The notes under the pieces are model-generated. The model did no database searches, was not told the DNA's origin, and saw only the letters and a program-made list of their open reading frames with translations. From contig CM000434.1 of the NCBI GenBank assembly GCA_000165345.1, forward strand, positions 832,001-896,000: a stretch of DNA of 64,000 bases. The letters are read 5' to 3'. Shown piece after piece: positions 3,500-60,870 of this stretch. Position 1 is the first letter of the stretch; the number at the start of each line of letters is the position of its first letter. A program made the position numbers and the translations under genes.

Positions 3500-3601
3500 T
3501 TGGCGCCATAACTCCCCTTAGAAATTGAGAATATTTTTATTATAGGGGGAAAAATGGCAAAGTAAAAAAAAAAAAAAAAGTTATATACCGGTAATGACGT
3601 G
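3500..3601. promoter_or_regulatory. Candidate divergent promoter elements (E2F-type TTGGCGCCA; ATACCGGTAA-TGACGTG)
   Basis: TTGGCGCCA lies at 3500-3508, and ATACCGGTAA at 3585-3594 directly abuts TGACGTG at 3595-3601. They sit between the divergent myotubularin (-) and derlin (+) start codons. Confidence 0.45.
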
Positions 3602-3675
3602 TTAATTTTTTTTGAGAAATTATATTAAAAAAATAAAATTGCTTAAAAAGACCAGAATTATTATAAAAGGAAAAT

Positions 3676-4503
3676 ATGTTCAATGATTCATCTCCACAAG
3701 GTTGGTATAAGAACTTACCTCCAATCACGAGGAGTATCCTCACAATAACATTTTTTTCAACTTTATTAATAACTTTTGGTATGTTGAATCCATGGTATAT
3801 TCTCTTTGATTGGGAGTACATTTTTCGCAAGGCACAAATTTGGAGATTCCTCACAAGCTTCTTTTTTGTGGGTCCATTTAGTATTGGATGGATTATGAGC
3901 CAATGGATGTTTACATCATTTTCATCAAAATTAGAGAGAAGTGGGTCGGTTGGTTCCTCATCTGGGTCTTATTTGTATTTTATATTGATTTTAATGACAG
4001 GAATTAACATAATAGGTACTGCTTTTGATTACCCCACAGGAAGAAAAATTGGAGGCTCTTCATTGATTTTTGGTATAATTTATTACTGGAGTAAGAAATT
4101 CCCAACTTCTTTGGTAAGTATTTGGGGATTCACTTTGCAAGCTTATCAGTTACCATATGCATTGTTATTTTTGGATGTTTTGACTGGTAACTCTTTGATT
4201 GACGATTTGATTGGATTATTAGCTGGACATTCTTATTACTATATTAGAGATATTATATATGAGAATAACGCAAATAACTTCTTAGCCAGAACTCCAAAGC
4301 ATTTTGACAAATTTGTTGACTACTCTTCTTTACTGATTAAGAACTATGTCTATGACTTTTCATCTTTAAATGGCCATCCTAATGTAATTAACTATCCAAA
4401 TTCAAATGTAAATAGAGCTGGTTCTTCTTACAATCCATTTTCAGGAAACTCTGCTCAACCTAGAGCCTTTTCAGGAAGGGGATTTAGGCTGGGTTCAGAT
4501 TAA
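3676..4503 (+). CDS. Derlin (Der1-like ERAD membrane protein)
   Basis: 275-aa ORF starting at an ATG. It has four hydrophobic segments and the Der1-family motif region AQIWRFLTSFFFVGPFS plus SLIFGIIYYWSKKFP. Confidence 0.8.
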   Translation: MFNDSSPQGWYKNLPPITRSILTITFFSTLLITFGMLNPWYILFDWEYIFRKAQIWRFLTSFFFVGPFSIGWIMSQWMFTSFSSKLERSGSVGSSSGSYLYFILILMTGINIIGTAFDYPTGRKIGGSSLIFGIIYYWSKKFPTSLVSIWGFTLQAYQLPYALLFLDVLTGNSLIDDLIGLLAGHSYYYIRDIIYENNANNFLARTPKHFDKFVDYSSLLIKNYVYDFSSLNGHPNVINYPNSNVNRAGSSYNPFSGNSAQPRAFSGRGFRLGSD

Positions 4504-4851
4504 GCTCAGAAAAGTTGAACTAGAAGATATATAAGTTAGTATTTTCTTACCATAGTATGGCTTTCCTTTATTATTTTAACTGCTAGTTTATAAATCTAAT
4601 ATAATTTTACATCCTAGTTATATATGTATATGATTATTTCAATCGATAAGAATTTGAAGATACAGGAGGAGAGAAACAATGAAGAAGAAAAAGGTGATCG
4701 TTTTCTAGATAATTATTTAGTTGCTATTAGCCGAGTAGAATTTTGCATTGATAGTATTGATATATAAATAATTCAATAGATCTATATACCCAATTAAGGG
4801 AACACAAGACTCCATCGAATAAATTAACTACTCTCTTCATCAATCTTTCTT

Positions 4852-6120
4852 TTATACTGTCCTGGTAGCTTTTTCATATAAAACATCAACGACATTTGAA
4901 AGATTGTCGAATGTAGAGATAAGTTCAGGAATCTTTAAATTAGAATTCTGATTCTCATCATAGATAGTAAGAACTTCAGTTCTTTGATCAATATTTCCCT
5001 GAATCAACTTGTTTAAAATCATTTCAATAACCTTGGAATAAACTCTTTCGGAAGAAAGATTGAGGAATAAAGCAAGTTGAGAGATTTCAATGTGTGAATA
5101 AGATTCCAAAATTCTTAAAATATTCTGTTCCATCAAACTTTCATACAAGTTATTAATATGTCTGTGAATGACCATATCACTGCTTAACTCGGTTTCATAA
5201 TTCTTTAAAACATCCTCGAACATACTAAGAGATCTATTTTCGCAGCAAGATGCAACCATTCTCAAGGCTTCAATCTCTCTCATCTGGAACTTAACTTTAT
5301 TTTTACCAGAAAGTAGAGAAGCTAAATTATTGGTTTGTTGGGACATGATCTTTGATAACAACATATACTTTAATGATTGCAAGGCTCTTTCATCATTTGC
5401 AATATTAAATGCCTCGAAAGCTTCATAAAAGTACGAGAATGATGTCTTAAAATCTTCTTCATCAGCAAGTATAATGCCAGATTGTAGATCTATATCAGCC
5501 TGTAAGAGAGGAGGACAGTGAATGGAGTTTGCATTAGTTCTAGCTGCTGTCAAAGCTGCCTTAGACTTGGGTAAGTTACGAATTCTATACTCAAGTTTAC
5601 TTTCTATCAAATAAGCCTCCACTAATAGAATCTTATCGTCAACCTTTTTAACTTCTTTAATCAACTTTTCAATATAGTCTAAACCTTTAACAAATTGACT
5701 AGAGTTCAAATAAACCATTGCTAAACGAGCAGTAATTCTATGTCTCAAGAATGTACGCTTCTCTTCTAAGCACCATTCAATACACTCCAAACAAAGTTGT
5801 TCTTGTAGTTTTTCGGTATCTGGAATTTTTGACATCATATCCATTAGATTTCGAATAATCTTTGCAACTCTAGCTTTTGGTAGTCCACCAATTATTGGTC
5901 TAATAGTTTTAATAAGCTCTTTCAATTCATTTGCCATGCCTTGTTTCATATATATTTCTCCTAATGTATAGATTGCCTGCTCTTGAATTTTGGTTCCATC
6001 TTCTATTTCATCCAAGTTGTCTTTTTTAATCAATTCGATTAATATTGGAATTGATAATTTGAAGTCTGTCTCCATCAGAGACTTTGCCTTCTCAAAATCA
6101 TCCTTAATACTTATTTCCAT
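4852..6120 (-). CDS. RPN6: 26S proteasome lid subunit Rpn6 / PSMD11 (PCI domain)
   Basis: 422-aa ORF. The block LLVEAYLIESKLEYRIRNLPKSKAALTAARTNANSIHCPPLLQADIDLQSGIILADEEDFKTSFSYFYEAFEAF matches the highly conserved Rpn6 core as I recall it. The C-terminal part is PCI-like. Confidence 0.9.
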   Translation of the reverse strand: MEISIKDDFEKAKSLMETDFKLSIPILIELIKKDNLDEIEDGTKIQEQAIYTLGEIYMKQGMANELKELIKTIRPIIGGLPKARVAKIIRNLMDMMSKIPDTEKLQEQLCLECIEWCLEEKRTFLRHRITARLAMVYLNSSQFVKGLDYIEKLIKEVKKVDDKILLVEAYLIESKLEYRIRNLPKSKAALTAARTNANSIHCPPLLQADIDLQSGIILADEEDFKTSFSYFYEAFEAFNIANDERALQSLKYMLLSKIMSQQTNNLASLLSGKNKVKFQMREIEALRMVASCCENRSLSMFEDVLKNYETELSSDMVIHRHINNLYESLMEQNILRILESYSHIEISQLALFLNLSSERVYSKVIEMILNKLIQGNIDQRTEVLTIYDENQNSNLKIPELISTFDNLSNVVDVLYEKATRTV

Positions 6121-6375
6121 TATTACTACTCACTCAATCCCTAGTTTGTTTTTCTTTCTTCCTTTCAAATAAGGAGGGTGGCTTTTGGTGAAATCAAAAT
6201 TTGAATTTGTCGCACCTTCTTACTTGTCAAACTTTAAGAGTTGATTCTCAAATTAATGTATGAAATTATTAATTTAAAAAAAAAATTGTCGTTTTAAATA
6301 ATAATTTTGTATTTTTCCCCCTTTATTATTATGTTACAATTATTCTCTTCTTGAACTTATTAGCTTAGATGCATA

Positions 6376-6389
6376 TTGGGCGCGCCCAA
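6376..6389. promoter_or_regulatory. 14-bp perfect palindrome TTGGGCGCGCCCAA (double E2F-type site)
   Basis: The sequence is self-complementary when read directly. It lies in the divergent intergenic region between RPN6 (-) and the 6583 gene (+). Confidence 0.5.
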
Positions 6390-6582
6390 ATAACCCCACG
6401 AAATACATAAATGTGCTGTTCAATGAATATCGAAAATAGATTAACATGCCAGAATAAATGTGATATTATAACTTTAGCTTCATTGAATAATTTGAATACG
6501 AAATGTGTCATTATTATTATTGAATTATATTGAAAGTTTGCTATAAGTGTTGTATGTATAAATATTTTGATGAAAAAAGAAA

Positions 6583-7588
6583 ATGAAATTCCAAAGTGAG
6601 AAAAATGAGGAAAATAAAGAAAGCATAAATAAGTCATCTTCAGCATTGATAAACTCATTAAGAAACCAAATTAATAAAGTATCAGCCTTGAATAAATTTC
6701 GCTTCATAAATAGTAATAAAAAGCCACTTGAAAATGAAGTCCAAATAAGTGATATTGCAGATAAAATTCGCAATAAGATCTCAATAAATAAGTTAAACAA
6801 GAGTCCAGGGCTTGAGCATACAAACAATAAGTATTCTGAAGAAATTGGAGGCGCTTATTCACCATTTAGAAAGAGAAATAAAAATAATGAAAAATATTCC
6901 TTGCAAAATAAAATGTCAAATTTTGAACAAACCAGATCAGAACTTGAGAATCTCTTACTTTATAATATCAACAAGCTGCGTCATGAGAGAATTAAGCTGA
7001 AAAACTGCCAAATGAATAAAAATAATAGTCATGATGAGAATGAAATTCTATTTCCAAATATTTATACACCTCTATCTTCAATGAAGTTTATGAATATCCA
7101 AGAATTATTTTTGTTTCTTTCATTGTTTTATCATAATTACCAAAGAGAGTGGATCTTACCATTATTAAATAACTTGAAAAATCTCGAAATAATCTTTTTC
7201 ACCCCAGAAAGTACTTCATCTTCATACTCTTCAACAATAATTACAGGTAGATACACTAAAATTTTAAATGAGGAATATTTGTTTTCAAGCAATGCACCAA
7301 TTTCAAAACTGATTTTAAATTCCGCAAAGTAAGTTACATTTATTAATTCCACTTTATAGCTTAATGCTTACTTAAAATTTCCTGAATAAATATTAATTTA
7401 TCTTTTATTTAAGGTGGCAAAAGGTTTCAAAAATTATAGAATCAGAAAATATTCAAGATTTCTCAACTGCTGTGTTTATATTTATTAACCCAAATATAAT
7501 TCAAACAAGTGAATGTGTATTTATCTCATCAGGTCTTTTCTTCATTTGCAACTTTGCACACCTCTTAACTTGTTTTGTTAGCAAGTAA
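6583..7588 (+). CDS. Hypothetical protein, 2 exons (306 aa)
   Basis: Exon 1 is 6583-7328. The intron is 7329-7413 (GTAAGT...TTTAAG). Exon 2 is 7414-7588. The splice restores the frame (746+175=921 nt) and opens a 58-codon stop-free extension ending in TAA at 7586-7588. No recognisable domain. Confidence 0.55.
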
Positions 7589-7702
7589 AACACTAGAAAT
7601 TGTCGAACTTGGTCTTTTACCAACATTTAATATTATTTGTCTACTTCAACTTTTATTTACTCTTTTTTTAATTATTAATACTATTTCTATTTCAAAAATA
7701 TT

Positions 7703-7847
7703 TTGTCCACATGAAATTTATTAATTTTCACACATACCGGTACTAAATATTTCTGATGACGTGTATAATTTTTTTTAATAAGTTTGCATGTGGAAATTGT
7801 CATACCGGTATATGCAATTACTATTATGTGTGGAAAAATTGCATGTA
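7703..7847. promoter_or_regulatory. Composite motif module (instance 1)
   Basis: TTGTCCACATG 7703-7713; ATACCGGTAC 7734-7743; GACGTGT 7758-7764; GCATGTGGAA 7786-7795; CATACCGGTATATGCA 7801-7816; TTGCATGTA 7839-7847. The module lies 115 bp after the previous stop codon and about 520 bp before the WD40 gene ATG. Confidence 0.45.
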
Positions 7848-8253
7848 AGAAGTAGATGTTTAGAAGTGGTTGCATTGATGAATTTTAAATATTAAAAATA
7901 TAATTTCGAGAGTTAATTAAAAAAAAATGCATATATAATAATAATAATTGTGGATGTAAATTTAATAAATAATGTTTCTTATTTATTATTGAATTGGCTA
8001 TAATCCAGAAAATAATCTACAATAAGTGAAATTGAGAAGAAAGTAACCTATGCTTAAAAAATACAAGTAAAAAAGTAAATAATTTGAATCAAGGGTAATA
8101 ACTAAAAATCAACAAATAATCATTTTTATCTACCCTTATATATTGCAAGAGATTCATTAATATTGATCGACTCATAATATTTAATATTAGCAAATCGGAA
8201 TTTTTTTTTATTCCATAATTCTAAAATGGTAATTAATTGCCTTTTTTAGACTG

Positions 8254-8261
8254 GGCGGGAA
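8254..8261. promoter_or_regulatory. E2F-type site GGCGGGAA
   Basis: Exact GGCGGGAA, 106 bp upstream of the ATG at 8367. Confidence 0.4.
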
Positions 8262-8366
8262 GTCGAAATATTATTTAAAGTTTAAGCTTGACATTAAGAA
8301 AAAAAAATTTGGATTTGGTGTTATTTAGGAAAAAGTTGTGAGAATTTGTTTGTTTAAGTACTAAAG

Positions 8367-9725
8367 ATGGATATGGAAATAGATTCAAATATTTCAGATG
8401 AAGAATATACTGGAATGGATGAAGATCCAGTATTGATAGTATCTGGAGATGAGCTTGATAGGTAAGTTAAAAGAAAATAACATTAGAACTTGATTAATAT
8501 TAAAATCGCACTAAATAAAACTTTTAGGGATGATGAAGATGAGGAAATGCCACTCTTTGATGTTCCTGATGAATCATCAGCTACAATCTTATCAATTGAT
8601 TCTCCAATTTGCTGTATAGATATAGATCCTACAAGAAGAGGTCGAATATTATTCGGAGGATGTGACGATAAAGCATATGTATCAAATTTACCAGAAAATC
8701 CTGTCTATTCTAGTGAGCAGGGAACTGAGAGACTTAACTTAGGTTTTGAAAAAGTATTTCAAGGTCATTCAGATACAGTTTCATGCGTTTCTTATTCAAC
8801 GGATGGAAAATATTTTGCAACAGGAGGTTGTGATGGAACTATAAGAGTTTATGGTAATGAAGTTTCAAATGAAGGCCAACTTATTTCAATTCTGGAGGGT
8901 CCATCTGATGAGCTTGAATTCATAAGGTGGCATCCGCGTGGACCATGTATATTTGGAGGTGGAGTAGATGGAACAGGATGGCTATGGATGGCTCCTGATG
9001 GAAGAGTATTATCTGTACTTTCTGGTCATGGAGATAGTATTACATGCGGAGATTTTAGTAATGAAGGTAAAATAGTTTGCACAGGATCTCTAGATGGAAG
9101 CGTAATTATTTGGAATCCAAAAAATGGAGAAAGTTTGCACAAAATTACAAGAAATAGTTTTGTTAATAACGCAGGTGACTCATCTTATTTAGAGGAATTG
9201 GGTATAGTTTCAATGAGAAGTCACAAAAAGAATCCGTTACTTGCTGTTGGGTTTACTAATGGTTTATTTTCTCTAATTCAACCTGATACTGGCAAAGTTC
9301 TAAGCTTAAACAACAGACATCATGATTCTCTAGATTGCATTGAATTCATTAATCATTTAGAAGATCCTCTGTTAGCTACTGGAGATATGTCTGGAGAATT
9401 AATTGTTTGGAATTATGAATACAATAGAGAAAATTTTGTAATGAAGAATCAGGAATTGGAACATTCAAATGGAGTCTTGCCTGGTATTACTAGTATATGC
9501 TGGGGTGGAGATAGAAACAATACCTTAATTGCAACGGGGTGTTTAGATGGAACTATTAGATTATGGGACTTTAGAACAGGAGAAAATGTTAAAATTCTTA
9601 AAGGGCATAAAAGTGGAATATTATCCATGAAAATCGTAGAATTCGGTTTTCAAGGAACCAACGTATTAAGGATGGTATCTACAGGAGATGATGGAAGATG
9701 CTTACTTTGGGATGTAAGAATGTAA
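8367..9725 (+). CDS. WD40-repeat protein, AAMP/Sqt1-like, 2 exons
   Basis: Exon 1 is 8367-8461 (MDMEIDSNISDEEYTGMDEDPVLIVSGDELD). The intron is 8462-8527 (GTAAGT...TTTTAG). Exon 2 is 8528-9725. An acidic N-terminus is followed by about 7 WD repeats (GHSDTVSCVSYSTDGKYFATGGCDGTIRVY, GHGDSITCGDFSNEGKIVCTGSLDGSVIIWN, GHKSGILSM...). The family assignment to AAMP/Sqt1 is from memory. Confidence 0.6.
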
Positions 9726-9790
9726 TAAGGAAAAAAAACAAGATTCAAATCATAATAATTTTAAAAGTGACTAAATTCTGTCTATAATCA

Positions 9791-10981
9791 TTAACAAATT
9801 ATCTTTAATACATCTTGAAGAGCTTTTGTATACTGGTTTAAGGCCTGGACAATGTCATCATCTGCAGCTTCTCTATTTTGGGATTCTTTTGCAATATCGT
9901 TTTTTATGTGAGCAATCTCCTCAAGTACGAAGTTTTGGAATTTATCTTGAGTCTTTTCAATCTTATCTTTGAGCTGGTTAAAACTATCATTTATTGAACT
10001 CAAAACCATTTCTTTATTATTAACTTCTCTCCCAATCTCCTCCTCTACATGATTCTCAAGCTCCTTCAAGAACAGTTTCATTTGCTCCTCCTTTTCTTCT
10101 GCTATATTATATTCTCTCTCAGCAATTGACTTGGCATTCATTATTTCATTCACAAGACTTTGGTGCTTATGTTCGAATTCCTCAATTATTTGTGATTTTT
10201 CGCTCACCATCTCTTTCTCAATTACAGATAACCTTTCGTCCAAACTCTTGCAAGCTATAGAAAGCTGGTCCAATTTTCCAGAAAACACATCCTCTAATCT
10301 TTGTTGTATTGAAGACATTTGTTCCTCAAAATTTCTCTTCATGTTTGATTGGATTTCATTTCTTTGTTGGTTCTCAGCTTCTATGGCCTTCTTTAACTTC
10401 ATTGTATTCTCCTTTAATACTTGGAGCCTATTCTCCTCATATTCCCTTTTTTGGCGAGTATCATTTCTTAATTGTTTCTCTAACCCAAGTAATTGGCCTT
10501 GAATTTGTCCAAGCTTTTGTTTTGTTGATAGGGGAAGAGACGAATTACCGATTAAAGATGTAGGAGAATGAATAAGCCCGCTAGTACTTGTTTCTGCTAC
10601 AGTTATTGGACTCAAACTTGTTGTAGCAATTGATGTATTATTTGTTGAATTTAAATTACTAATGGTACCTCCTAATTGTTGAGAAAATAAAGCACTGAGA
10701 GACCCATTCTTTCTACCAAGTGAATTTTTTAAATTTGTCTGGTTCTGTTTTATGTTTCTACTTGATAAACTTAATTGCAAATGCTTTGGTGATTGTGAAG
10801 TTCCTCCTGTTTGGCTGTTAAATCCTGAAAGATTAAGATTCTCATTACCCACAACAACTTCATCAAGGTTTGTTGTAATATCCAAATTGGTCTTTATTTC
10901 GTTTACTGGTGCTACAATTCCTCCTGTTGATATTGTTAAAGACGACTTATTAATCAAATCCATTATTTCTTCTTTTAACAT
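9791..10981 (-). CDS. SF-assemblin (striated fibre assemblin) family coiled-coil protein
   Basis: 396-aa ORF. The C-terminal 250 aa are heptad-rich and end in ADDDIVQALNQYTKALQDVLKII. This closely matches the SF-assemblin C-terminal signature recalled from algal SFA (EDDEIVQAINDYTKALQEGLKLV). Confidence 0.75.
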   Translation of the reverse strand: MLKEEIMDLINKSSLTISTGGIVAPVNEIKTNLDITTNLDEVVVGNENLNLSGFNSQTGGTSQSPKHLQLSLSSRNIKQNQTNLKNSLGRKNGSLSALFSQQLGGTISNLNSTNNTSIATTSLSPITVAETSTSGLIHSPTSLIGNSSLPLSTKQKLGQIQGQLLGLEKQLRNDTRQKREYEENRLQVLKENTMKLKKAIEAENQQRNEIQSNMKRNFEEQMSSIQQRLEDVFSGKLDQLSIACKSLDERLSVIEKEMVSEKSQIIEEFEHKHQSLVNEIMNAKSIAEREYNIAEEKEEQMKLFLKELENHVEEEIGREVNNKEMVLSSINDSFNQLKDKIEKTQDKFQNFVLEEIAHIKNDIAKESQNREAADDDIVQALNQYTKALQDVLKIIC

Positions 10982-13222: not shown

Positions 13223-13230
13223 GGCGGGAA
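13223..13230. promoter_or_regulatory. E2F-type site GGCGGGAA
   Basis: Exact GGCGGGAA, 234 bp upstream of the minus-strand ATG at 12989. Confidence 0.4.
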
Positions 13231-16293: not shown

Positions 16294-16391
16294 TTTGTCC
16301 ACATGAACTTGCAAATGTTTGCAAGTTGCATGCAATTACCTGCATTACACGTAATTGGTGAAATTCAATACCGGTATATAGGCGGGGCCCC
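16294..16391. promoter_or_regulatory. Composite motif module (instance 2)
   Basis: TTTGTCCACATG 16294-16305; TGCATGCA 16327-16334; ACACGTAA 16347-16354; ATACCGGTAT 16368-16377; GGCGGGGCCCC 16381-16391. The module lies about 255-350 bp upstream of the ATG at 16645. Confidence 0.5.
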
Positions 16392-18526: not shown

Positions 18527-18590
18527 CCCCGGTACCTGGTTAAGTGCAGCACGTGCATGCGCATGTTTGCGCGGGGATTGGGCGGGAAAA
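18527..18590. promoter_or_regulatory. Composite motif patch between two convergent 3' ends
   Basis: CCCCGGTACC 18527-18536; CACGTGCATGCGCATG 18550-18565; TTGGGCGGGAAAA 18578-18590. It lies 155 bp after the stop of the + gene (18372) and 11 bp after the stop of the - gene (18601). Confidence 0.4.
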
Positions 18591-26153: not shown

Positions 26154-26286
26154 TTGTCCACATTGAAAAAAAAAATTTATTGCATGCATGCAATTTACAC
26201 GTAAGATTAAAAAAAGTGTGCATGTGGATGAATAACAATTGAACGAAGCTAATACCGGTATGTGAATTTTACATATTTACGTGGGA
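26154..26286. promoter_or_regulatory. Composite motif module (instance 4)
   Basis: TTGTCCACATT 26154-26164; TTGCATGCATGCAATTTACACGTAAG 26180-26205; GTGCATGTGGAT 26218-26229; AATACCGGTATG 26251-26262; TTACGTGGGA 26277-26286. The module lies upstream of the giant gene (ATG 25593) and 53 bp past the stop of the 26339 gene. Confidence 0.45.
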
Positions 26287-28556: not shown

Positions 28557-28654
28557 TTGGCGCCTCTTTGTCGAAAAAGTCATGCACAGGTATATGCAAT
28601 ACTTTTGCATGTAGCTATATAAAATGTCATGCACTCATGTGGATAACACGTAAT
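28557..28654. promoter_or_regulatory. Composite motif module (instance 5, partly degenerate)
   Basis: TTGGCGCC 28557-28564; CATGCACAGGTATATGCA 28581-28598 (ACAGGTAT in place of ACCGGTAT); TTGCATGTA 28605-28613; CATGTGGATAACACGTAAT 28636-28654. The module lies 164-261 bp upstream of the TSR2 ATG. Confidence 0.4.
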
Positions 28655-43896: not shown

Positions 43897-43948
43897 AAAA
43901 AGGTACCCGGTACCTTTTTTTTGAAAGAAATTATATATGCCGGTATAT
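43897..43948. promoter_or_regulatory. Near-perfect palindrome AAAAAGGTACC-C-GGTACCTTTTT plus ATGCCGGTATAT
   Basis: The 11-nt inverted arms at 43897-43907 and 43909-43919 flank a single C. The CCGGTAT-type word is at 43937-43948. The patch lies 180 bp after the giant gene stop and about 215-260 bp before the TRAPPC5 ATG. Confidence 0.4.
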
Positions 43949-47271: not shown

Positions 47272-47394
47272 TTTCCACATGCATTTGTACAGCTCTATAA
47301 ATTTGTTGTATACCGGCATTTTAACAAATTTGCATGCATACGAAGTGACGTGTCATTTTTTTTTAAATGACTAATCGACACGTATGTGGACAAA
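47272..47394. promoter_or_regulatory. Composite motif module (instance 8)
   Basis: TTTCCACATGCAT 47272-47284; GTATACCGGCAT 47308-47319; TTTGCATGCATAC 47329-47341; GTGACGTGTCA 47345-47355; GACACGTATGTGGACAAA 47377-47394. The module lies 136 bp from the GH13 ATG. TTGGCGCG at 47727-47734 lies further on. Confidence 0.5.
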
Positions 47395-50635: not shown

Positions 50636-50739
50636 CCACATACACACACATGTGGACAAATAATTCAATACCGGTATTTCGTAATATGACAAAATTGCAT
50701 GCACATACGTGTAAAAAAAGTTTGCATGCAATTACGTGG
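50636..50739. promoter_or_regulatory. Composite motif module (instance 9)
   Basis: CCCACATACACACACATGTGGACAAA 50635-50660; AATACCGGTATT 50667-50678; TTGCATGCACATACGTGTA 50695-50713; TTTGCATGCAATTACGTGG 50721-50739. The module lies 115 bp after the stop at 50520 and 700 bp before the ATG at 51438. Confidence 0.5.
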
Positions 50740-51437
50740 TAGAAAGTAGATTATTATGCGAATAAGTAAATGCGATTAGTTTTTATAAAGTTAGTTTTAA
50801 TATATGAAATATAAGATTTTTTTTTCTTCTAAATTTGTTTCATCAGAAAAAAATTGGTAAAGAATAAATTTAGTTGAATAAAAAATAATAATAATAATAG
50901 GAAAACTTTAACTTTGATAAATAGTGGTTAAGTGAGTTATTATGGCCTTTAGCTACAAAAAAAATGGCTACACAGTTTGGCGGCAAGTGCGTAGAAATTG
51001 TGGATGTGTGTGAGAATGGAAATAAATTAAGCTGGAGAAAAAAAAAAAATCGTATTTAATAAAGTAAATGGAAAAGGCCTGCTCAAATAGAGAGGAAAGA
51101 AAGACCAAGAAAGAGAAATAGTATTGATCCAGCGAGAAGTGAAGAAAAGTAGGCGAGTAAAGATAGGAAAGAACGAAGATTGTGAAGTTGAAATATTGGA
51201 GTAGATGAACATAAATTGAGCCATAATAAAGAGGTATATATACATATATCTATATATGTATATATGCAATATATACGTGGAATGCATAATTAATAGAGAT
51301 ACAAGTTTCGAAGCAAAGGCATTTTCACGCACAAAATAATTTATTTTCTAGGTATTAAATTAAATTACATGAAATTAAATCGGAAATTTCAAAAGGAAAG
51401 CAAATATAATTGAAATTTTAGTGGATAATTCAATGAG

Positions 51438-52903: not shown

Positions 52904-53533
52904 ATGCAAAGACTAACTCATGTAACTTGCTTTTTTCTAATTGTGTGTGGATGGGTAATTAATGTATTTTGGCCTTTTGTTGAAGGAATAGGAATAAGAG
53001 ACTTAGAAATTCATGGTACTTCAAAAAATAGTCAAAAAAATTCTTCTAATATTACATACTCTTGGTTTTTAGAAAATCCCAATGAGTTTGTAGAAGGAGA
53101 AAGTAGCAATAATGATACTAACTTAATAGGTACTTCGATACCATATAAAATTGAAGATGAAGATTATAAGTTAACTAAAGATACATCATATTATCAAAGA
53201 AAACATCATGATTTACTCTACTTAGATCAAGTTGGGATCTGGGTAAAGTTTCACGATTATGCCTCAAATGTTGATATATTAGTAGAAAGTACACAAACAA
53301 GAAATACTTTAACAGATTCTAGTCGCAAATATGGAAGATTGTTGGAAGATCAAATCAAAGGAAATCTAAGTAGAAATGGTTCAAATGAAGATCTTGGGTT
53401 ACACTCCTTAAGAAAAAATGGCAGGAAAAGTGGTTGGTGTTTGTTTCATTCATTTTTCCAAGTAGTTTCAAAAGATTGGTTGCTTGGCTGGAACTTTATA
53501 TGCAATTATTTTAAAGAATTCATACTGAAATAA
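52904..53533 (+). CDS. Hypothetical protein with N-terminal signal/anchor (209 aa)
   Basis: Single ORF from an ATG. The N-terminus is MQRLTHVTCFFLIVCGWVINVFWPFVEG. No recognised domain. Confidence 0.5.
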   Translation: MQRLTHVTCFFLIVCGWVINVFWPFVEGIGIRDLEIHGTSKNSQKNSSNITYSWFLENPNEFVEGESSNNDTNLIGTSIPYKIEDEDYKLTKDTSYYQRKHHDLLYLDQVGIWVKFHDYASNVDILVESTQTRNTLTDSSRKYGRLLEDQIKGNLSRNGSNEDLGLHSLRKNGRKSGWCLFHSFFQVVSKDWLLGWNFICNYFKEFILK

Positions 53534-54074
53534 TTGGATAACTTTAAAAATAACAAGTTAAAAGGGCAAATGTTTATTTAATATTTTGAAATGTATAGTT
53601 TATCTACAGTACAGAGCTCATTGTTTGAGTGATGAACTTTAAGTCTTGGCTAATGGGAGAAGCAGGAAAGTCAGAACAGGAAACAAAAGATTTAACTTCT
53701 TTAGAAAATTAAAATCTTTTTATTAGACAGATTAGGATAACTATTTCAGATAAATGTTTATAAACACCCATAAATTCCAGTAATATTTATGGAGATACGT
53801 GGTAGTGGCGATATGGTTGGCGGGCCATAAGAGGAAAAGTTATAAAATAACTCAAAGCAGATAAGCCAAAGAGTTGTTAATTAAGAGCGGAAAGATTAAG
53901 TACAATAAAAAGAAATAGAAATTTATGTTAGATGATGGAACATTAGAATTAGGAAATGTGTTGATTCAGTTTAATTCCTTTAAATTTTTTAATATCAAAT
54001 TTGCATGTAAATTTTTTTTTTATCAAATAATTCAGTATCGATAATATATAAATTTATGCTTGGAATTTAGCCAA

Positions 54075-54111
54075 AAAGGCGCCAACCAGGCTTGCATGTC
54101 TCGTATTCGAG
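54075..54111. promoter_or_regulatory. GGCGCCA plus CATGTCTCGTATTCGAG element upstream of GAPDH
   Basis: AAAAGGCGCCAA lies at 54075-54086 and CATGTCTCGTATTCGAG at 54095-54111, which is 272 bp before the GAPDH ATG. It matches 15 of 17 positions of the RPS30 upstream element. Confidence 0.5.
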
Positions 54112-54324
54112 TATACTAAGGATAGTATATTATATTGGATATTGGGGGAATTAATAATATAAAAAAGATAGGCGCATGGACAGAGAGGATACTGCACACC
54201 AATATTGTATATATAAAGAAATAACCCACTTTATTTAGTTGAATCTTAGATAGATAAACTAATATTTTCGATATTTCTTAATTTTTTTTTTAAAAATTTG
54301 GAAGTGAAGCAAAACTTTTGCTAA

Positions 54325-55386
<1,062 letters not shown>

Positions 55387-55879
55387 ACTAGAACTTAAAG
55401 ATAAGTAAGAACGGAGTAAAACTTTTCGATACATAAACTCTCAAATTGGCATCATTTTATCGGCAATTGTTTTGCAAACCCTTTCAATGTCAACATGTTT
55501 TTCTCTGGCGCAAGCTACCATCTATCTCAATCGGATTTAAACATAAATGCCAACTTTCCCTGCTTCAAATCATCCTCTGCCACCACAGTTCTCTCGACTA
55601 CTCGTAGGGAAATACTGATGTTAAATTGCTAGCGTTGAAAGTGGTTCTTTGGGGGGTCCAGGGAGTTAGCGAGTTGTGTGTAAATGAACATTTACTACCA
55701 AGACTTACTATCGCATGCAGTTTAATCGCCTTTGAAGACTTTCTTCATTATTAGTGTCAAATAGTTTATTTCTCTGTTAATCGAAATGTTAATTACTCAA
55801 TTTCAATCTCAATTAGACCCTTTTTTCTCGAAAAATCGATCTGAGCTTTACTTCATTTAGTTTAATGTTTAGGAGCGAA

Positions 55880-56018
55880 CTGTCCACATAAAATTAGTCA
55901 AGCATTACGTATATTGCTATTATGCTTTGCATGAATGGGGGGCGAAATAGTATTTTTTTATACCGGTATGCAAGTGGAGTGCAAAGAAATTACTAATTTG
56001 CATGTTTTTGGCGCCAAA
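55880..56018. promoter_or_regulatory. Composite motif module (instance 10) ending in the 12-bp palindrome TTTGGCGCCAAA
   Basis: CTGTCCACATA 55880-55890; ATTACGTAT 55904-55912; TTTGCATGA 55927-55935; TATACCGGTATGCA 55959-55972; TTTGCATGT 55998-56006; TTTGGCGCCAAA 56007-56018. The module lies 217-355 bp upstream of the hexokinase ATG. Confidence 0.55.
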
Positions 56019-56234
56019 GTTTGTGAAAAATTTCTGAATTTATTAATTATTTAGAATTATCATTTAATATAAATTAATAAAGTTATTGGTAGAAATTAGT
56101 AAGTGTGATATAAGTATCAGTATAATTGAACGGTCTGATTAATATTTCTGAGCAAGGTAAAGATAGAAAAGAAATAAATTAGAAATTTACGACTATAATA
56201 TAAATATATATAATTAAATTAAAACAAAGCTAAA

Positions 56235-57791
56235 ATGGAAGAGGAAAATCAAGCCAAGAGGCTGTTTGATTTATATGAAGAATATTTTTTCCTTTCAAAT
56301 TTAAAGCTGCTGGAGTTGGTTGATGATTTTCACAAATCTTTAGAAGACGGACTTGAAAATCACGCAAATCGACTAAAAATTGACAAATACCATTCCAATT
56401 ACAAGCCTTTTAAAATGTTAGACTCTTGTGTTGATAGACTTCCAACTGGGAAGGAAAAAGGAGTTTATTATGCTATTGATATGGGTGGCACTAATTTACG
56501 ATGTGTTAGAGTAAATTTACTTGGTAATGGCCAAAGTGAAACAAAATTTAAAAAGGTTAAATTGTCAGAAATGAAAGTGTCTTCTACTGGGAAGGTTGTA
56601 AATAGCAACAAAATTTCCAAAGTTGATCAAGAAGTCAATATTTTTGATAAAACTGTATCTTCAGAAACAATGTTTAATTCAATTGCAGTTTTCTTTAATG
56701 AGTTTTTGGATGAATGTGGCGACTTAAATGATTTGACCAATGATAATAATGTAGGCAATCTCCCATTAGAAGTTGGCTTCACCTTTTCTTTTCCTATCGT
56801 GCAATCTAAAATTGCAAGTGCAAAACTGGTAATATGGACAAAAGAAATTGAAACAGGTAGATTAACTGATGATCCTGTTGAAGGAAAAGATATTGGTGAT
56901 TTATTGAATTTAGCCTTTAAAAGAAATGGAGTACCAGCTCAATGTAAATGCGTTTTAAATGATACAGTTGGAACCCTTATATCAGCAATGTATGATTTAA
57001 ATATTAATAATTATTGCGACAATAACCACTCTTTAAAAGTTAATTTTCCAAATAATATATCTGAAAATCAACCATTAATTGGAATTGTGGTTGGAACTGG
57101 AGTAAATGCTTGCTACCTTGAACCAAATTCTTCAAATTTTGGTTATAAAGGAGTTATTATTAATACAGAGTGTGGAGACTTTTATTCAACCAAATTACCC
57201 ATAACTGATTGTGATTACTCTATGGATTGGTTTAGTGATAATAGAGGAGAACAGATATTTGAAAAAATGATTAGTGGAACTTATTTAGGAGAAATCTCTC
57301 GGTTATTAATTATCAATTTTTTAAAAAACAAAACTCCAGAGATTTTCTTCCAAAAGAATTCATTAAAAACTGAACATATTGCCAAAATTATTAGCCATTT
57401 CAATGATAATCATCAAAAATATAACCAAAACCATGATTTAAAGTCTATTGAAAATTATTTAAAGGAAACATTTTCTTCAAATCTTGATCATAATTCCACT
57501 TATATTATTGCAAAAATATCACAGATGGTACTCATGAGAGCAGCATCTCTTGTCTCAGCCATTATTGCTGCATTTTTCAAAAGGTTTAATAAGCCACGCA
57601 ATCAAATTACCATTGCCATAGATGGATCAGTTTGGACTAAAATACCCAAATTCCAAAAATACGTTAAAGATTCACTCTCATCTTTGATTCAAGAGAGCGG
57701 ATATCTTGGCTCAATACATTTTTATGAATCAGATGATGGATCTGGAAGAGGTGCTGCTATTCTTGCTAGCACTACAGTCAATACACATTGA
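56235..57791 (+). CDS. HK: Hexokinase
   Basis: 518-aa ORF. It has hexokinase signatures YYAIDMGGTNLRCVRV (phosphate-1), GFTFSFP, LNDTVGTL, GIVVGTGVNACY, TECGDF (as in E.G.F), ISGTYLGEI and a C-terminal DGSGRGAA. Confidence 0.92.
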   Translation: MEEENQAKRLFDLYEEYFFLSNLKLLELVDDFHKSLEDGLENHANRLKIDKYHSNYKPFKMLDSCVDRLPTGKEKGVYYAIDMGGTNLRCVRVNLLGNGQSETKFKKVKLSEMKVSSTGKVVNSNKISKVDQEVNIFDKTVSSETMFNSIAVFFNEFLDECGDLNDLTNDNNVGNLPLEVGFTFSFPIVQSKIASAKLVIWTKEIETGRLTDDPVEGKDIGDLLNLAFKRNGVPAQCKCVLNDTVGTLISAMYDLNINNYCDNNHSLKVNFPNNISENQPLIGIVVGTGVNACYLEPNSSNFGYKGVIINTECGDFYSTKLPITDCDYSMDWFSDNRGEQIFEKMISGTYLGEISRLLIINFLKNKTPEIFFQKNSLKTEHIAKIISHFNDNHQKYNQNHDLKSIENYLKETFSSNLDHNSTYIIAKISQMVLMRAASLVSAIIAAFFKRFNKPRNQITIAIDGSVWTKIPKFQKYVKDSLSSLIQESGYLGSIHFYESDDGSGRGAAILASTTVNTH

Positions 57792-57932
57792 CCTTTTTAT
57801 AGTCCATCCTACTTTTTTGTAATTTCATTTCCGGTCATTTATTGTTTATACTTATTGTTCTTATTCATTGAAAATAATAGTAATTAATTCATCTTATTCA
57901 GATTTGTACATGCCAATGTTCATAGAAATAAC

Positions 57933-57960
57933 AAAAATTTGGCGCGCGCGCCAAATTTTT
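57933..57960. promoter_or_regulatory. 28-bp perfect palindrome AAAAATTTGGCGCGCGCGCCAAATTTTT
   Basis: The sequence is self-complementary over all 28 nt with a (GC)-alternating core. It lies 142 bp after the hexokinase stop and 225 bp before the CFIm25 ATG. Confidence 0.55.
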
Positions 57961-58184
57961 ATTTTATTTAGAATTTAAAGAATTTCAATATTAATTTAAG
58001 GTTTTATTCTCAATATTTTTTTTTTTTTAATTAATAAATACCTTTTAAAGTTTAAATAATCCATTTGTTTGAAGTTGGAGTCCATTCTTGGCAGATATTT
58101 CTGCATAGATCTTTTAGGTCATAATTAATTTTAATCTTTAATTGAAAGTATTTTTTATGCACATTTTTTTGAATCTTTATACAA

Positions 58185-59018
58185 ATGCAGGAGGGTTCGA
58201 ATAATGTTAGTAACAATCTGATGAACGATAATAAAATTGAGGAGGATGTTTTAGAGCAGCCAACATTTTTAACAAACCAAAGTCTTTTGAACGAAGAGCA
58301 GAGTATGGCTACAAACGTTGATCATGAACCATCATGGTTAATTTATCCATTGAAGAATTATGGAATTCGAGTTCAAGATAATAGTGACGAAATTCAATCA
58401 AGTATCCCAATTAATGAAATGAATGGGTTTAATGTAAAGGTTGATAACTTTTTAAAAGATGGAATTGGACGTAGCGTTGCTGCATTAATGCTTACTCATC
58501 GTTATTTATGTCCACATGTAGTTTTACTTCAGAATGATTTAACGAGTGAATGGATGCTTCCAAATTGTACTTATAAGGCCTGGGAAAATCCTCGCATAGT
58601 ATTAGCAAACTTTTTAAAGTCAATGTTCCTTACAAGTTCGAGCATTAATAGTAATACTAATAACAGTGGAAGTAATAATGGCAATAATAATAGCTCGACA
58701 AATAATAACAATATAAATAATGCTTGTTCTGATAATGCAGTGGAAGTTGGGGAATACTTGGGAACTTGGTGGAGAACTGAGTTTAATTATTCTCCTTTGC
58801 CTTATTTACCTCCCCATTCAACAAGGCCCAAAGAAACAATAAGGATTTACCAGGTTATTCTTCCTCCAAAATTGCTATTTAAATTACCAAAGCACCATGT
58901 GTTAAAGAGCTTACCTCTGTTTGATTTGGACCCAAATATATTTGGAATAGCATGCGGTAGTATTCCCCAGCTTATTTCAAGATTTCAAATTCAATCAATG
59001 GTTCAGTCGGATAATTAG
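58185..59018 (+). CDS. NUDT21: Cleavage factor Im 25-kDa subunit (CFIm25 / NUDT21, Nudix fold)
   Basis: 277-aa ORF. It has YPLKNYGI, GRSVAALMLTHRYLCPHVVLLQ, GTWWRTEFNYSPLPYLPPHSTRPKETIRIYQVILP and LPLFDL...GSIPQLISRFQI, collinear with the conserved CFIm25 blocks. An Asn-rich insertion is present. Confidence 0.85.
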   Translation: MQEGSNNVSNNLMNDNKIEEDVLEQPTFLTNQSLLNEEQSMATNVDHEPSWLIYPLKNYGIRVQDNSDEIQSSIPINEMNGFNVKVDNFLKDGIGRSVAALMLTHRYLCPHVVLLQNDLTSEWMLPNCTYKAWENPRIVLANFLKSMFLTSSSINSNTNNSGSNNGNNNSSTNNNNINNACSDNAVEVGEYLGTWWRTEFNYSPLPYLPPHSTRPKETIRIYQVILPPKLLFKLPKHHVLKSLPLFDLDPNIFGIACGSIPQLISRFQIQSMVQSDN

Positions 59019-59141
59019 AATTTATATTGAAAAGTTATTTTATTATTAGTAAAAGAAATAGATTTTGCTACATAATATTTTATATTATTCTCTTTTTGAT
59101 CGATTATGATAATAATCAATTTATTATTTTTATTAAATATA

Positions 59142-60545
59142 TTAATAAATAATAAATAGTAGCAGGCTGAGGATAATGGTTATTCCAAATGTAGCCATTT
59201 TAAGAACAGATTCTGAATTGGATGATAATGAGATGAACATAGGCCCATATTTACTATGTTTTGCCAATGTGAAGCCCACCATTAGGTTATCTCTATCAAA
59301 TATTGAGTAGTACTTTCGAATGAAGTTATTTCCAAGTACAAAAAGTGGACCTCTAGGAGCTGGAATATCAAGAGGGATATATCCAATGCTACAATAATGT
59401 TCTTGCGGGCCCCAATAATAGCTAAAAGCATTAAATGATGAAGGCCCTCCTTCATCAATTACATAGTCTTGAGGATCCATATGCATTTCTATCTCATTTC
59501 CATGAATATCTTCTATCACATAAGTTATTCTAGGAGAAGATAGATATCTATTACATTCTCCCTCCATGGGTATAACTTTGGTGATCTTTCTCATAAAACT
59601 ACTTGGGGCTGTGGAGACAGATGAACCAGTATCTATAGCTGCCTTGCAGTCCCCGAAGCAATAGTTCGTGCTAACCCCATTAATCTTTATATCTTTGATC
59701 TTGATTTCCCAGTAATGAGACCCAGTAAGTCGATGCCAGGTTATTTTTTGACCACTTATTGTGTATTTAGGATCAGCAGCTCCAAAAGAAATTGAACCTG
59801 GAGTACTTGAATCTCTGGAAATGTAAACTCCAAAAAGATTTCTTGGTAAAATGTTTCGTTCTTTAATATTCTCAACAATTGTTGGGATATTATTTTTTTT
59901 ACTGTTCTTATCTGGAAATCCAAGTCCTACCAAACCATCGAATGGTAATTCAGCAAAAGGAGATGTACTTTCCTCAATAGCCATCCCGAAAGACTGATCT
60001 TCTATCTTCAGCTTTCCAATATTTATGACTTCTTTACCAAACTTTAACACACAAGAACCCGTACCATATTGGATATATGTCTCCAATGATCCATCCCCCA
60101 ATTTTTGATAAGAGGTACTCAACTTTGGATCATACTTGTTGTGGGGCTCACAACCTTTATGCTTACATTCAATACTTGGAATCCATACACTGGAGCTTCC
60201 TGTATCAAAAATGACAACGAACTCTCTTGGAGGCGTTCCCACCTCAATTTTACCAAAATATTGACTATTTTGGTAATTTCTAAGATCCTGAGAGTCCATT
60301 GTCTCTGAATACTTACTCTTGGTAATCCACCTTGAAAAATAGTTGCCTTCTGAATATTTCATTCCTCCCTCAGATAGACTTAATTTTAACTCAACTTTTT
60401 GAGCATTTGAATTAAATAAGCCATTACTTAGTATAGCCTCCATTCCTAACTCTGCCCTAGCATTTGACCTAATCTTGTTTGATAATCCTTCACAAAAAGC
60501 TGATATTTTCAGCATCATTAAAATAAAAAACACTTGAAACACCAT
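59142..60545 (-). CDS. Pepsin-family (A1) aspartyl protease with signal peptide and C-terminal TM segment
   Basis: 467-aa ORF. The N-terminus is MVFQVFFILMMLKISAFCEG. The two catalytic motifs are VVIFDTGSSSVWIPS and AAIDTGSSVSTAP. YFGKIEVGTPPREF is cathepsin-D/plasmepsin-like. The terminal hydrophobic segment is MATFGITIILSLLLFIIY. Confidence 0.88.
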   Translation of the reverse strand: MVFQVFFILMMLKISAFCEGLSNKIRSNARAELGMEAILSNGLFNSNAQKVELKLSLSEGGMKYSEGNYFSRWITKSKYSETMDSQDLRNYQNSQYFGKIEVGTPPREFVVIFDTGSSSVWIPSIECKHKGCEPHNKYDPKLSTSYQKLGDGSLETYIQYGTGSCVLKFGKEVINIGKLKIEDQSFGMAIEESTSPFAELPFDGLVGLGFPDKNSKKNNIPTIVENIKERNILPRNLFGVYISRDSSTPGSISFGAADPKYTISGQKITWHRLTGSHYWEIKIKDIKINGVSTNYCFGDCKAAIDTGSSVSTAPSSFMRKITKVIPMEGECNRYLSSPRITYVIEDIHGNEIEMHMDPQDYVIDEGGPSSFNAFSYYWGPQEHYCSIGYIPLDIPAPRGPLFVLGNNFIRKYYSIFDRDNLMVGFTLAKHSKYGPMFISLSSNSESVLKMATFGITIILSLLLFIIY

Positions 60546-60789
60546 CTTGTATGTTGCACACTACTACGTTAAACTCTCTTTTATTTTATTTTGAATCTCA
60601 TTAGTTCTTTACACTTTAATTTCTCTTTAATTAATGTTTGTTTCAGAGTAGCTCCTACCTATATTGATGATTTGCAATTACTTTATTTTATTATTATTAT
60701 ATATACATGTAAATATTTACATATATATCTATATATATTTTTTTTTTGGTTTGAATTACATGTAATTATTGACTTTTCATGTTTTTTTA

Positions 60790-60870
60790 TTTGCATGTAA
60801 ACACCGGTACGTGGCCTCTAGCAATAACCACGTAATAGGCGGTAAAAAAGCCAACCATTTGCCGCCAAAA
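60790..60870. promoter_or_regulatory. Composite motif module (instance 11)
   Basis: TTTGCATGTAAACACCGGTACGTGG 60790-60814; ACCACGTAAT 60827-60836; TAGGCGGTAAAA 60836-60847; TTGCCGCCAAAA 60859-60870. The module lies in a divergent intergenic region, 245 bp from the protease ATG and about 330 bp from the Rab1 ATG. Confidence 0.5.

Follow-up and report, generated by a model that had tools for sequence, protein, structure and literature searches.

Clusters of recurring promoter words associated with female-stage gene expression on chromosome 6 of Cryptosporidium parvum

Among the promoter motifs described in Cryptosporidium, TGCATGCA is the AP2_1 motif of the ApiAP2 proteins (De Silva 2008; Oberstaller 2013, 2014; PMC3734150, PMC4117751), and the E2F/DP site TTGGCGCCAA is the most abundant promoter motif (PMC3734150; bioRxiv 10.1101/2025.01.17.633476). 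A single motif, TGCATG(T/C)(G/A), in agreement with the motifs obtained for cgd2_3490 and cgd1_3520 on microarrays, was reported for the published promoters of 65 genes selected as responsive to macrogamont-differentiation modulators (Hasan 2024; PMC11078545). An unnamed consensus, A[T/A]G[T/A]GGA.A, was found in 2013 upstream of five Class II oocyst-wall-protein genes and described as unrelated to the 25 genome-wide motifs of that study (PMC3734150). Here, a window of 64,000 nucleotides of C. parvum chromosome 6 (GCA_000165345.1, contig CM000434.1, positions 832,001 to 896,000), spanning the genes cgd6_3570 to cgd6_3840, was analyzed for intergenic patches, called modules below, in which TGCATGCA stands together with a CCGG-type palindrome (ATACCGGTAT), a GTGGA-type word (CATGTGGACA), and an ACGT-core word. 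These words are enriched in non-coding DNA, clustered, conserved across the genus, and associated with female expression. The TGCATG(Y)(R) macrogamont motif (2024), the E2F sites, and a degenerate form of CATGTGGACA (2013) are published already, so that the feature is known in part, but the modules carry two or three further words ranking just behind the known AP2 site. The evidence supports the modules as marks of genes of the female (macrogamont) program, a link that the initial annotation of the window had not drawn, and we regard them with high confidence as binding-site clusters tied to female-stage expression.

The macrogamont system of cgd2_3490 (PMC11078545) resembles the modules in that the same word precedes the same class of genes, with cgd6_3730 present in both, and TGCATGCA is the commonest member of every module in the window. 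While one motif was described there, the present clusters comprise four or five words, of which it is one, and the text of that paper omits ATACCGG and CATGTGG, which rank next in its own promoters. A 2025 review lists only AP2_1, AP2_2, G-box, E2F, GAGA, and CAAT in its motif table, and a full-text search of the Cryptosporidium literature, which figure-only logos escape, found no report of an ACCGG, TACCGG/ATACCGGTAT, or ACGT-core motif. The 2013 consensus is fitted exactly by ATGTGGACA and also by CATGTGGACA, whereas here it is extended to yCATGTGGA(C/T)AA, conserved across species, and co-occurs with ATACCGGTAT.

The motif of Plasmodium AP2-FG is TGTRNNYACA, and TGTGGACA has the same TGT...ACA arms, although these are four bases apart in Plasmodium and two here, and the likeness comes from the motif alone and not from factor orthology. 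To our knowledge, the Plasmodium motif sets hold no equivalent of ATACCGGTAT. AP2-FG is reported to act in the female gametocyte with a partner, PFG (PMC10945693), and both systems have sex-specific apicomplexan promoter words, readers of the AP2 family, and more than one factor per promoter. Among the oomycetes, M94 (TACCGGTA) of Phytophthora infestans is a stage-specific promoter palindrome (PMC3597505), and streme-5 of Plasmopara halstedii, also a promoter word, is ATACCGGTAT (PMC10031896). The 10-mer is identical (an 8-mer in Phytophthora) and lies upstream of co-expressed, stage-regulated genes in the same stramenopile-alveolate-rhizarian (SAR) supergroup, but the comparison is by motif only and could reflect coincidence. 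In P. infestans, TACATGTA (M93) and TACCGGTA (M94) form a stage-specific pair of palindromes differing only in two central bases. Because the same palindrome recurs as an oomycete stage-specific promoter word, ATACCGGTAT may be part of an old transcription-factor/motif pair common to the SAR supergroup.

The G+C content was 30.6% over the window and 27% in its non-coding DNA. On both strands of the window, exact copies numbered five for ATACCGGTAT (7802, 16368, 26252, 50668, and 55960), seven for TGTGGACA, four for CATGTGGACA, nine for TGCATGCA, 11 for TACGTG, and ten for ACCGGT. The copies of TGCATGCA, including those at 16327, 26181, 26185, 47331, 50696, and 50723, match the protein-binding-microarray motif of cgd2_3490 and cgd1_3520. 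As a test of enrichment, the non-coding DNA of the window was shuffled 300 times with its dinucleotide counts preserved. ATACCGGTAT was observed 5 times against 0.00 expected, ATGTGGACA 6 times against 0.08, TGCATGCA 8 times against 0.22, TACGTG 11 times against 2.1, and GGCGCC 11 times against 0.22, and for each word the observed count was equaled in 0 of 300 shuffles. Every tested word was at or below the shuffle expectation in the coding DNA of the window, with zero copies of TACGTG and GGCGCC in masked coding sequence. The intergenic enrichment that the initial annotation had put forward as a check is thus present in the window, and its remark that the only coding ACCGGT lies at 39880-39885 agrees with the exact count (one of ten copies). 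The TACCGGTA at 39879 is in coding sequence. One of the four copies of CATGTGGACA, which had gone unmentioned, sits at 58509 in the coding sequence of cgd6_3810.

Logos made from all instances resolved into three consensus forms: yCATGTGGA(C/T)AA, (T)ATACCGGTAT as a palindrome, and an ACGT core with TTAC, TGAC, or CAC half-sites at its flanks. The TGAC, TTAC, and CAC half-sites of a bZIP-type ACGT core were found among the instances in TTACGTG, TGACGTG, CACGTAA, TGACGTCA, and CACGTG.

Clustering was assessed by randomly re-placing each word class over the non-coding positions of the window. Seven of the 14 CCGG-type words lay at most 120 nt from a GTGGA-type word (null mean 2.0, P = 0.0016), while ten of 14 lay within this distance of TGCATG and ten of 14 of an ACGT-core word (P <= 0.0002 each). 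Co-location was tighter than chance (pairwise P <= 0.002), in line with the clustering noted initially. When intergenic regions were scored by the number of the four word classes present in any 150-bp stretch, the 25 regions of the window fell into two groups, ten with at least three classes and 15 with at most two. Eleven patches had been listed initially; ten of these regions hold at least three classes, while the patch at 3585-3601 has two words only. Every coordinate and string of the two examples worked out there was found to be right.

Expression was taken from sorted asexual and female parasites (Tandel 2019 supplement, PMC6877471) for the genes cgd6_3520 to cgd6_3870. Only eight of these genes were up-regulated in females: cgd6_3640, cgd6_3720, cgd6_3730, and cgd6_3750 with log2 fold changes of 1.31, 7.31, 9.25, and 3.83, and cgd6_3790 (GAPDH), cgd6_3800, cgd6_3820, and cgd6_3830 with 2.53, 1.59, 4.17, and 2.21, respectively. 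The most female-specific genes of the window, cgd6_3720 and cgd6_3730, share the module at 36410. A module was present in the 5' intergenic region of seven of the eight female-up genes and of seven of the 28 others (Fisher P = 0.0026), the 28 being the genes with a 5' intergenic region, including those of two flanks beyond the window.

The words also recur in promoters chosen independently of this window. The gene cgd6_3730, one of the 65 in the Hasan 2024 macrogamont set, lies within the window, and 63 promoters from outside it (file S6) were used as an external set. ATGTGGAYA was observed 21 times against 0.24 expected and occurred in 16 of the 63 promoters, and CCGGTAT likewise occurred in 16 of 63 (0.35 expected). 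ATACCGGTAT, TACGTG, and GGGGGG were observed 6, 11, and 18 times against expectations of 0.01, 1.9, and 0.9, respectively. An unbiased ranking of 7-mers, poly-A aside, placed the TGCATGCA family first, directly followed by ATACCGG (23 observed against 0.73 expected) and CATGTGG. ATGTGGA and CCGG words co-occurred in the same promoters with an odds ratio of 10.9 (P = 1.5e-4). Textbook examples are COWP8 (cgd6_200), whose promoter has two ATGTGGACA-type copies plus ATACCGGTAT, the branching enzyme cgd6_3280, the UDP-glucose dehydrogenase cgd8_920, the divergent pair cgd8_4290 / cgd8_4300, NEK5 (cgd7_5050), and CCP2 (cgd7_300). Since order and orientation of the words vary by gene, the grammar is loose between genes, though fixed within the lineage of each gene. 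CATGTGGA occurred in five of seven AP2-F-dependent promoters and in 13 of 56 others (P = 0.017; P = 0.36 with a stricter word), a suggestive tie that is not robust and serves as a lead only. Words resembling TACATGTA were enriched in the same promoters as well, ACATGTA being observed 17 times against 3.4 expected.

The E2F words behaved differently. It had been proposed that the modules usually stand beside an E2F-type word, which the window does not bear out: only 2 of 13 GTGGA-type words (null 2.8) and 6 of 14 CCGG-type words (P = 0.06) lay near one, and the association was seen for TGCATG only (13 of 25, P = 0.0006). Most GGCGCC sites of the window stand apart from modules, in promoters without the other words, and among the external promoters GGCGCC occurred in none of 18 with a GTGGA word and in 9 of 45 others, so that no positive association was found there either. 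Membership of E2F in the module is thus not supported by co-location in the window or by the external set. The E2F/DP site TTGGCGCCAA shares some intergenic regions with modules (28557, 56008, 36410, and 16381) and is conserved there, but it does not co-cluster with the GTGGA word and is typical of those window promoters in which no module occurs. E2F words of the GGCGCC type form a general promoter element in their own right, distinct from the module, and at times occur in the same intergenic region. The attribution of TGCATGCA to ApiAP2 and of GGCGCC to E2F/DP in the initial annotation agrees with the literature (PMC3734150, PMC4117751, PMC12246861). Open chromatin of sporozoites, as mapped by the assay for transposase-accessible chromatin with sequencing, contains E2F motifs and no AP2 motifs (bioRxiv 10.1101/2025.01.17.633476), which is consistent with module promoters that are closed outside the sexual stage, that is, stage-restricted.

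Most probably, the patches are cis-regulatory modules of putative heterotypic binding sites that drive, or help to drive, female (macrogamont) and transmission-stage transcription. The words could instead be generic elements of most promoters or nucleosome-free regions, with a link to females that is accidental to a gene-dense region. The seven comparison genes with a 5' module speak for this, as does the lack of a large matched non-female set in that comparison, and TGCATG is widespread in apicomplexan promoters (PMC3734150). We nevertheless consider it unlikely, as at most two classes were found in the 15 lower-scoring regions of the window and in seven of eight intergenic regions of the flanks, mostly with E2F words instead. 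Module presence moreover follows female-up status, the words are top-ranked in promoters that were selected by macrogamont expression alone, and the open chromatin of sporozoites carries only E2F motifs.

Several observations weigh against modules as marks of the female program. The female-up GAPDH gene (cgd6_3790) has no full module, only TGCATG and E2F words, and full modules precede cgd6_3610, cgd6_3650, cgd6_3770, and cgd6_3550, none of which is in the list of genes up-regulated in sorted females. The flanks, in which no gene is female-up, were predicted to be free of modules, which was correct in seven of eight new intergenic regions and wrong at cgd6_3550. This gene is not female-up in sorted cells, and its messenger RNA (mRNA) reaches a high level in sporozoites (8.6, as against 4.1 at 24 h and 4.8 at 48 h). 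The negative control is small, with 36 genes in ~80 kb, and the external promoter sequences cover only ~390 nt each and were compared with shuffles and a Markov background instead of matched non-female promoters. The weaker patch at 18529-18588 faces no annotated gene start; possibly it drives an antisense or non-coding transcript. For some modules, a late-female or post-fertilization role is plausible because cgd6_3610 rises by 48 h, four-fold from its 24 h value in bulk RNA sequencing (sporozoite 7.2, 24 h 4.1, 48 h 6.2), and because cgd6_3630 and cgd6_3660 are up in in-vivo compared with in-vitro females (+2.45 and +2.42, respectively). In bulk culture (Tandel 2019 supplement), cgd6_3610 falls in the expression cluster of amylase and hexokinase. 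No expression record of cgd6_3650 or cgd6_3770 was found in the expression supplements searched.

Orthologous regions were compared from C. hominis, C. meleagridis, Cryptosporidium sp. chipmunk genotype I, C. ubiquitum, a Cryptosporidium assembly from a public sequencing run (L014), C. canis, C. felis, C. bovis, and C. andersoni, nine species besides C. parvum. Gene order in the window was set from the names of cluster members, a Pfam scan, and published gene descriptions, and it is the same in all nine regions. The GAPDH protein encoded at 54367-55386 was matched exactly in C. parvum chromosome 6 records such as CP029785.1 (~883 kb) and BX526834.1, and a protein of identical sequence is also encoded in the assemblies of C. 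hominis and C. meleagridis. Five intergenic regions, namely three with modules, the GAPDH promoter, and the region from hexokinase to cgd6_3810 as a control, were aligned from C. parvum, C. meleagridis, chipmunk genotype I, C. ubiquitum, and L014.

Across the three regions with modules, 63-72% of the word columns were invariant in the five species, compared with 21-27% of the other columns. Invariant runs of at least 7 bases were mostly module words or the E2F word, that is, ATACCGG (in all three modules), ACACGTATGTGGACA, AATTGCATG, TTGCATG, ATTACGT, and TTGGCGCC. The amylase module at 47273 kept ATACCGG and ACACGTATGTGGACA, its words being present also in C. canis, C. bovis, and C. felis; the module at 50649 kept ATACCGG, AATTGCATG, and TTGCATG; and the hexokinase module at 55881 kept ATTACGT, ATACCGG, and TTGGCGCC. 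In the promoter of GAPDH, the conserved words were TGCATG and E2F only, and no invariant word run was found in the control region of this alignment. The non-word invariant runs were mainly a block at 50976-51016, besides short runs of poly-A, TAGATGA, and ACCCACTT. This block of 41 nt, TTTGGCGGCAAGTGCGTAGAAATTGTGGATGTGTGTGAGAA, hardly varies among the five species and reads nearly the same in C. canis and C. felis. Situated ~420 nt upstream of the start codon in the 426-aa model of cgd6_3770, it is far better conserved than the adjacent sequence and could represent a core promoter, an E2F-like site joined to something else, or a piece of an unannotated exon or RNA.

In the more distant species, modules were kept, rearranged, or lost. 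C. canis retained four of the four modules examined, almost word for word. C. bovis retained two, that of amylase (ATCCACATG, CATACCGGTAT, and TGCATGC) and that between cgd6_3720 and cgd6_3730 (36410), the words of which are retained in both C. canis and C. bovis. The cgd6_3770 module at 50649 has no counterpart in C. bovis and C. andersoni, while that of C. felis has ATACCGGTAT, TGCATGCATGCA, and TGTGTGGATA in a changed order; the hexokinase module is lost in C. felis. In L014, TGTGGACA upstream of hexokinase is present but flipped, and TGACGTCA stands in place of TGACGTGTCA in the amylase module. The gastric species C. andersoni has TATACCGGTA (also written ATACCGGTA) beside GCATGC ~130 bp before the start codon of amylase and keeps TGCATGCA, TTACGTG, and TGCATGCA between cgd6_3720 and cgd6_3730, having lost the hexokinase and cgd6_3770 modules. 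Among up to nine other species, words were thus retained while spacers diverged, in line with the ortholog check suggested initially, and this is the pattern that would be expected for protein-binding sites under selection. Words that are flipped (L014) or re-ordered (C. felis) favor sites over inherited sequence.

The same comparison bears on the view that the patches derive from a dispersed repeat or mobile element whose copies have decayed. Four modules (7704, 16296, 26155, and 55881) do have the same words in a similar order. Word order and orientation nevertheless vary among the modules as a whole and among the 63 external promoters, spacers differ between modules with nothing alignable beyond the words, and a repeat search over the whole window found no family covering any module, the top families being A+T-rich chance matches and one coding tandem repeat. 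Terminal repeats and target-site duplications are absent, and orthologous positions are maintained across the genus. We give this view next to no probability. The initial annotation had likewise spoken of a motif grammar and not of a dispersed repeat, a description with which the unalignable spacers, the orthologs that keep words and not spacers, the palindromes, and the use of both strands all agree.

Strand use is also informative as to whether the words act in RNA, as elements of 3' or 5' untranslated regions (UTRs) in, for example, storage or translational repression of maternal mRNA. Some modules do lie 50-220 nt past stop codons, namely 26155 (cgd6_3660), 28557 (cgd6_3670), 50649 (cgd6_3760), and 16831 on the left-hand flank L015 (cgd6_3540), and maternal mRNA control is active in females (bioRxiv 10.64898/2026.09.01.748511). 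Four of the words, however, are perfect palindromes, and CATGTGGA occurs in either orientation with respect to the gene (18 plus, 7 minus), features that together would indicate binding of double-stranded DNA. Four modules (16296, 36410, 47273, and 60792) are in divergent regions where a 3' UTR is impossible, and the female mRNA-binding protein has a different published motif, the coding-sequence word CAMCAACAR. Action in RNA is accordingly judged very improbable. A non-coding RNA gene at the modules was ruled out, as the Rfam and tRNA scans of the window matched only two transfer RNA (tRNA) genes, neither of them at a module.

A last alternative accepts protein binding and reduces the patches to homotypic clusters of TGCATG (AP2) sites, with CATGTGGACA as a variant of TGCATGTG and with ATACCGGTAT and ACGTG as passengers. 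TGCATG is the commonest word in every module, the Hasan 2024 motif TGCATG(T/C)(G/A) overlaps GCATGTGG, and GC directly precedes 15 of the 44 GTGGA instances. Since it precedes only these 15, with 29 of 44 lacking it (e.g., TTTTATGTGGACA, TCAATGTGGACA, and CGTATGTGGACA), the GTGGA word is not merely a TGCATG variant. ATACCGG is the single most conserved run in the three aligned modules and has an enrichment of its own in the external set, and ACGT-core words are invariant in the footprints (ATTACGT and ACACGTA). Homotypic clusters are for these reasons quite unlikely, and heterotypic modules remain the preferred explanation.

If the modules act as proposed, distinct transcription factors would occupy the clustered sites on double-stranded DNA. 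We infer which proteins might bind and that the modules would activate transcription; confidence in any specific binding protein is low. TGCATGCA / TGCATG(Y)(R) would be read by the female-expressed ApiAP2 factors cgd2_3490, for which protein-binding-microarray data exist, and AP2-F (cgd4_1110), whose motif is TGCAT-like, and the occasional G-run would be read by the female AP2 protein cgd8_810. These three appear to be reasonable occupants because all are female-expressed and have matching in-vitro motifs. The 10-bp palindrome ATACCGGTAT would be read by a further factor, probably a homodimer as its symmetry suggests. Plant DREB-type AP2 domains read ACCGAC, and an AP2 protein is therefore conceivable for a word of this type. 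A Grainyhead/CP2-type site (AACCGGTT) was not adopted for ATACCGGTAT, as only the 6-base core is common to both, with flanks of ATA/TAT as against A/T, and we know of no CP2-domain protein in Apicomplexa. A second further factor, possibly an AP2 protein, would read yCATGTGGA(C/T)AA, and the ACGT-core word (TTACGTG, TGACGTG, and CACGTAA) would be read by a bZIP-like or AP2 factor, bZIP being the obvious candidate for such a core. The arrangement would be flexible between genes, in the style of a billboard enhancer, and held within each gene by selection across species. It is possible, though doubtful, that ATACCGGTAT, and perhaps CATGTGGA(C/T)AA, is the site of a so-far-unnamed regulator of the female program.

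The modules sit ~130-770 bp upstream of start codons. A full module at 7704..7847, between the 3' end of cgd6_3600 and the 5' end of cgd6_3610, has four of four classes and 13 word matches in 150 bp, with TGTCCACATG at 7704, ATACCGGT at 7734, TGACGTG at 7757, TGCATGTGGAA at 7785, ATACCGGTAT at 7802, and TGCATG at 7840. The full module at 16296..16387 occupies the divergent region of cgd6_3630 (minus strand) and cgd6_3640 (plus strand, protein disulfide isomerase), ~260-350 bp upstream of the start codon of the latter, and comprises TGTCCACATG at 16296, TGCATGCA at 16327, CACGTAA at 16348, ATACCGGTAT at 16368, and GGCGGGG at 16381. The weaker patch at 18529..18588, located where cgd6_3640 and cgd6_3650 converge with their 3' ends, has three word classes, represented by CCGGTA at 18529, CACGTGCATGC at 18550, and GGCGGGAA at 18581. 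Upstream of cgd6_3650 (minus strand) and just past the stop codon of cgd6_3660, the full module at 26155..26284 has four classes and 13 matches, including TGTCCACAT at 26155, TGCATGCATGCA at 26181, CACGTAA at 26198, TGCATGTGGAT at 26219, ATACCGGTAT at 26252, and TTACGTG at 26277. A partial module without a CCGG word at 28557..28654, upstream of cgd6_3660 (minus strand) and downstream of cgd6_3670, consists of TTGGCGCC at 28557, three TGCATG/CATGCA words, and CATGTGGATAACACGTAA at 28636.

The divergent region between cgd6_3720 (minus strand, pyrroline-5-carboxylate reductase) and cgd6_3730 (plus strand, a large secreted protein) holds the module at 36410..36558, with TTCCCGCC at 36410, TGCATG at 36431, GTCGTCCACAAA at 36441, TGCATG at 36454, ATACCGGT at 36463, CACGTG at 36491, and TGCATGC at 36552. 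Between this module and the start codon of cgd6_3730, AAATTTTACATAAATTCGAGAG (36573-36594) is recognizable in C. canis, C. bovis, and C. andersoni and may be an initiator or transcription-start element. Within the coding sequence of cgd6_3730, a strongly female-specific secreted protein, a 24-nt tandem repeat of ~7-8 units spans 40518-40709. The full module at 47273..47392, 135-255 bp upstream of cgd6_3750 (minus strand, alpha-amylase / branching-enzyme family), contains TTCCACATGCA at 47273, ATACCGGC at 47310, TGCATGCA at 47331, TGACGTGTCA at 47346, and CACGTATGTGGACA at 47379. Downstream of the stop codon of cgd6_3760 and ~700 bp upstream of cgd6_3770, the full module at 50649..50739 contains CATGTGGACAAA at 50649, ATACCGGTAT at 50668, TGCATGCA at 50696, TACGTG at 50706, TGCATGCA again at 50723, and TTACGTGG at 50732.

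The module at 55881..56015, 220-355 bp upstream of cgd6_3800 (plus strand, hexokinase), has TGTCCACAT at 55881, ATTACGT at 55904, TGCATG with GGGGGG at 55928-55942, ATACCGGTAT at 55960, TGCATG at 55999, and TTGGCGCC at 56008. That at 60792..60884 lies in the divergent region of cgd6_3820 (minus strand, aspartyl protease) and cgd6_3830 (plus strand, small GTPase) and has no GTGGA word; its words are TGCATG at 60792, ACCGGTACGTGG at 60803, CCACGTAA at 60828, and GCATGC at 60879. The two-class mini-patch at 3585..3601, ATACCGGTAATGACGTG (ATACCGGT plus TGACGTG), in the divergent region of cgd6_3570 and cgd6_3580, is the weakest of those initially listed, and neither flanking gene is female-up. To the left of the window, the full module on the chromosome 6 flank (L015 16831-16955), 380-500 bp upstream of cgd6_3550 (Kae1/TsaD), is composed of ACACGTAA, TTCCACAT, TGCATGCA, ATACCGGT, ATCCACATG, and TTACGTG.

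Some matches to single words lie elsewhere. Two CCGG palindromes, GGTACCCGGTACC and ATATGCCGGTATAT, occur without other module words at 43902-43948, upstream of the TRAPP subunit gene cgd6_3740. At 63257-63295, the open reading frame of cgd6_3840 contains TGCATGCATGCA and TGGCGCCAAAAG at a distance of 17 nt, in frame as PLHACNQNMYMAPKEV and 1.2 kb upstream of cgd6_3850, an L7Ae-family (L30e-like) ribosomal-protein gene whose intergenic region is 64 nt long. This pair may be an intragenic promoter or be tied to the polycistronic transcription recently reported in C. parvum. The CCGG matches at 191 and near 35240 are not module words, being explained by the tRNA-Gln (TTG) gene at 163-235 and the tRNA-Pro (CGG) gene at 35223-35294, respectively, both on the minus strand and identified by the tRNA scan.

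Cryptosporidium needs sex to sustain infection and to be transmitted, and blocking sex cures infection in mice. The male switch is Myb-M, while the reviews and a preprint of 2025-2026 report that no female determinant and no female counterpart of Myb-M have been found. Three female AP2 factors are known from the same literature to be expressed late, too late for early female gene expression. As a defined and conserved mark of female-stage promoters, this set of DNA words offers a handle on the control of the female program, and it makes the published single macrogamont motif only part of a composite. ATACCGGTAT, CATGTGGACA, and CATGTGGACAA could be used as baits for DNA-affinity capture of the factors that bind them, and the words could guide binding assays with AP2, Myb, bZIP, and zinc-finger proteins and serve in the design of minimal female-specific promoters for genetic tools.

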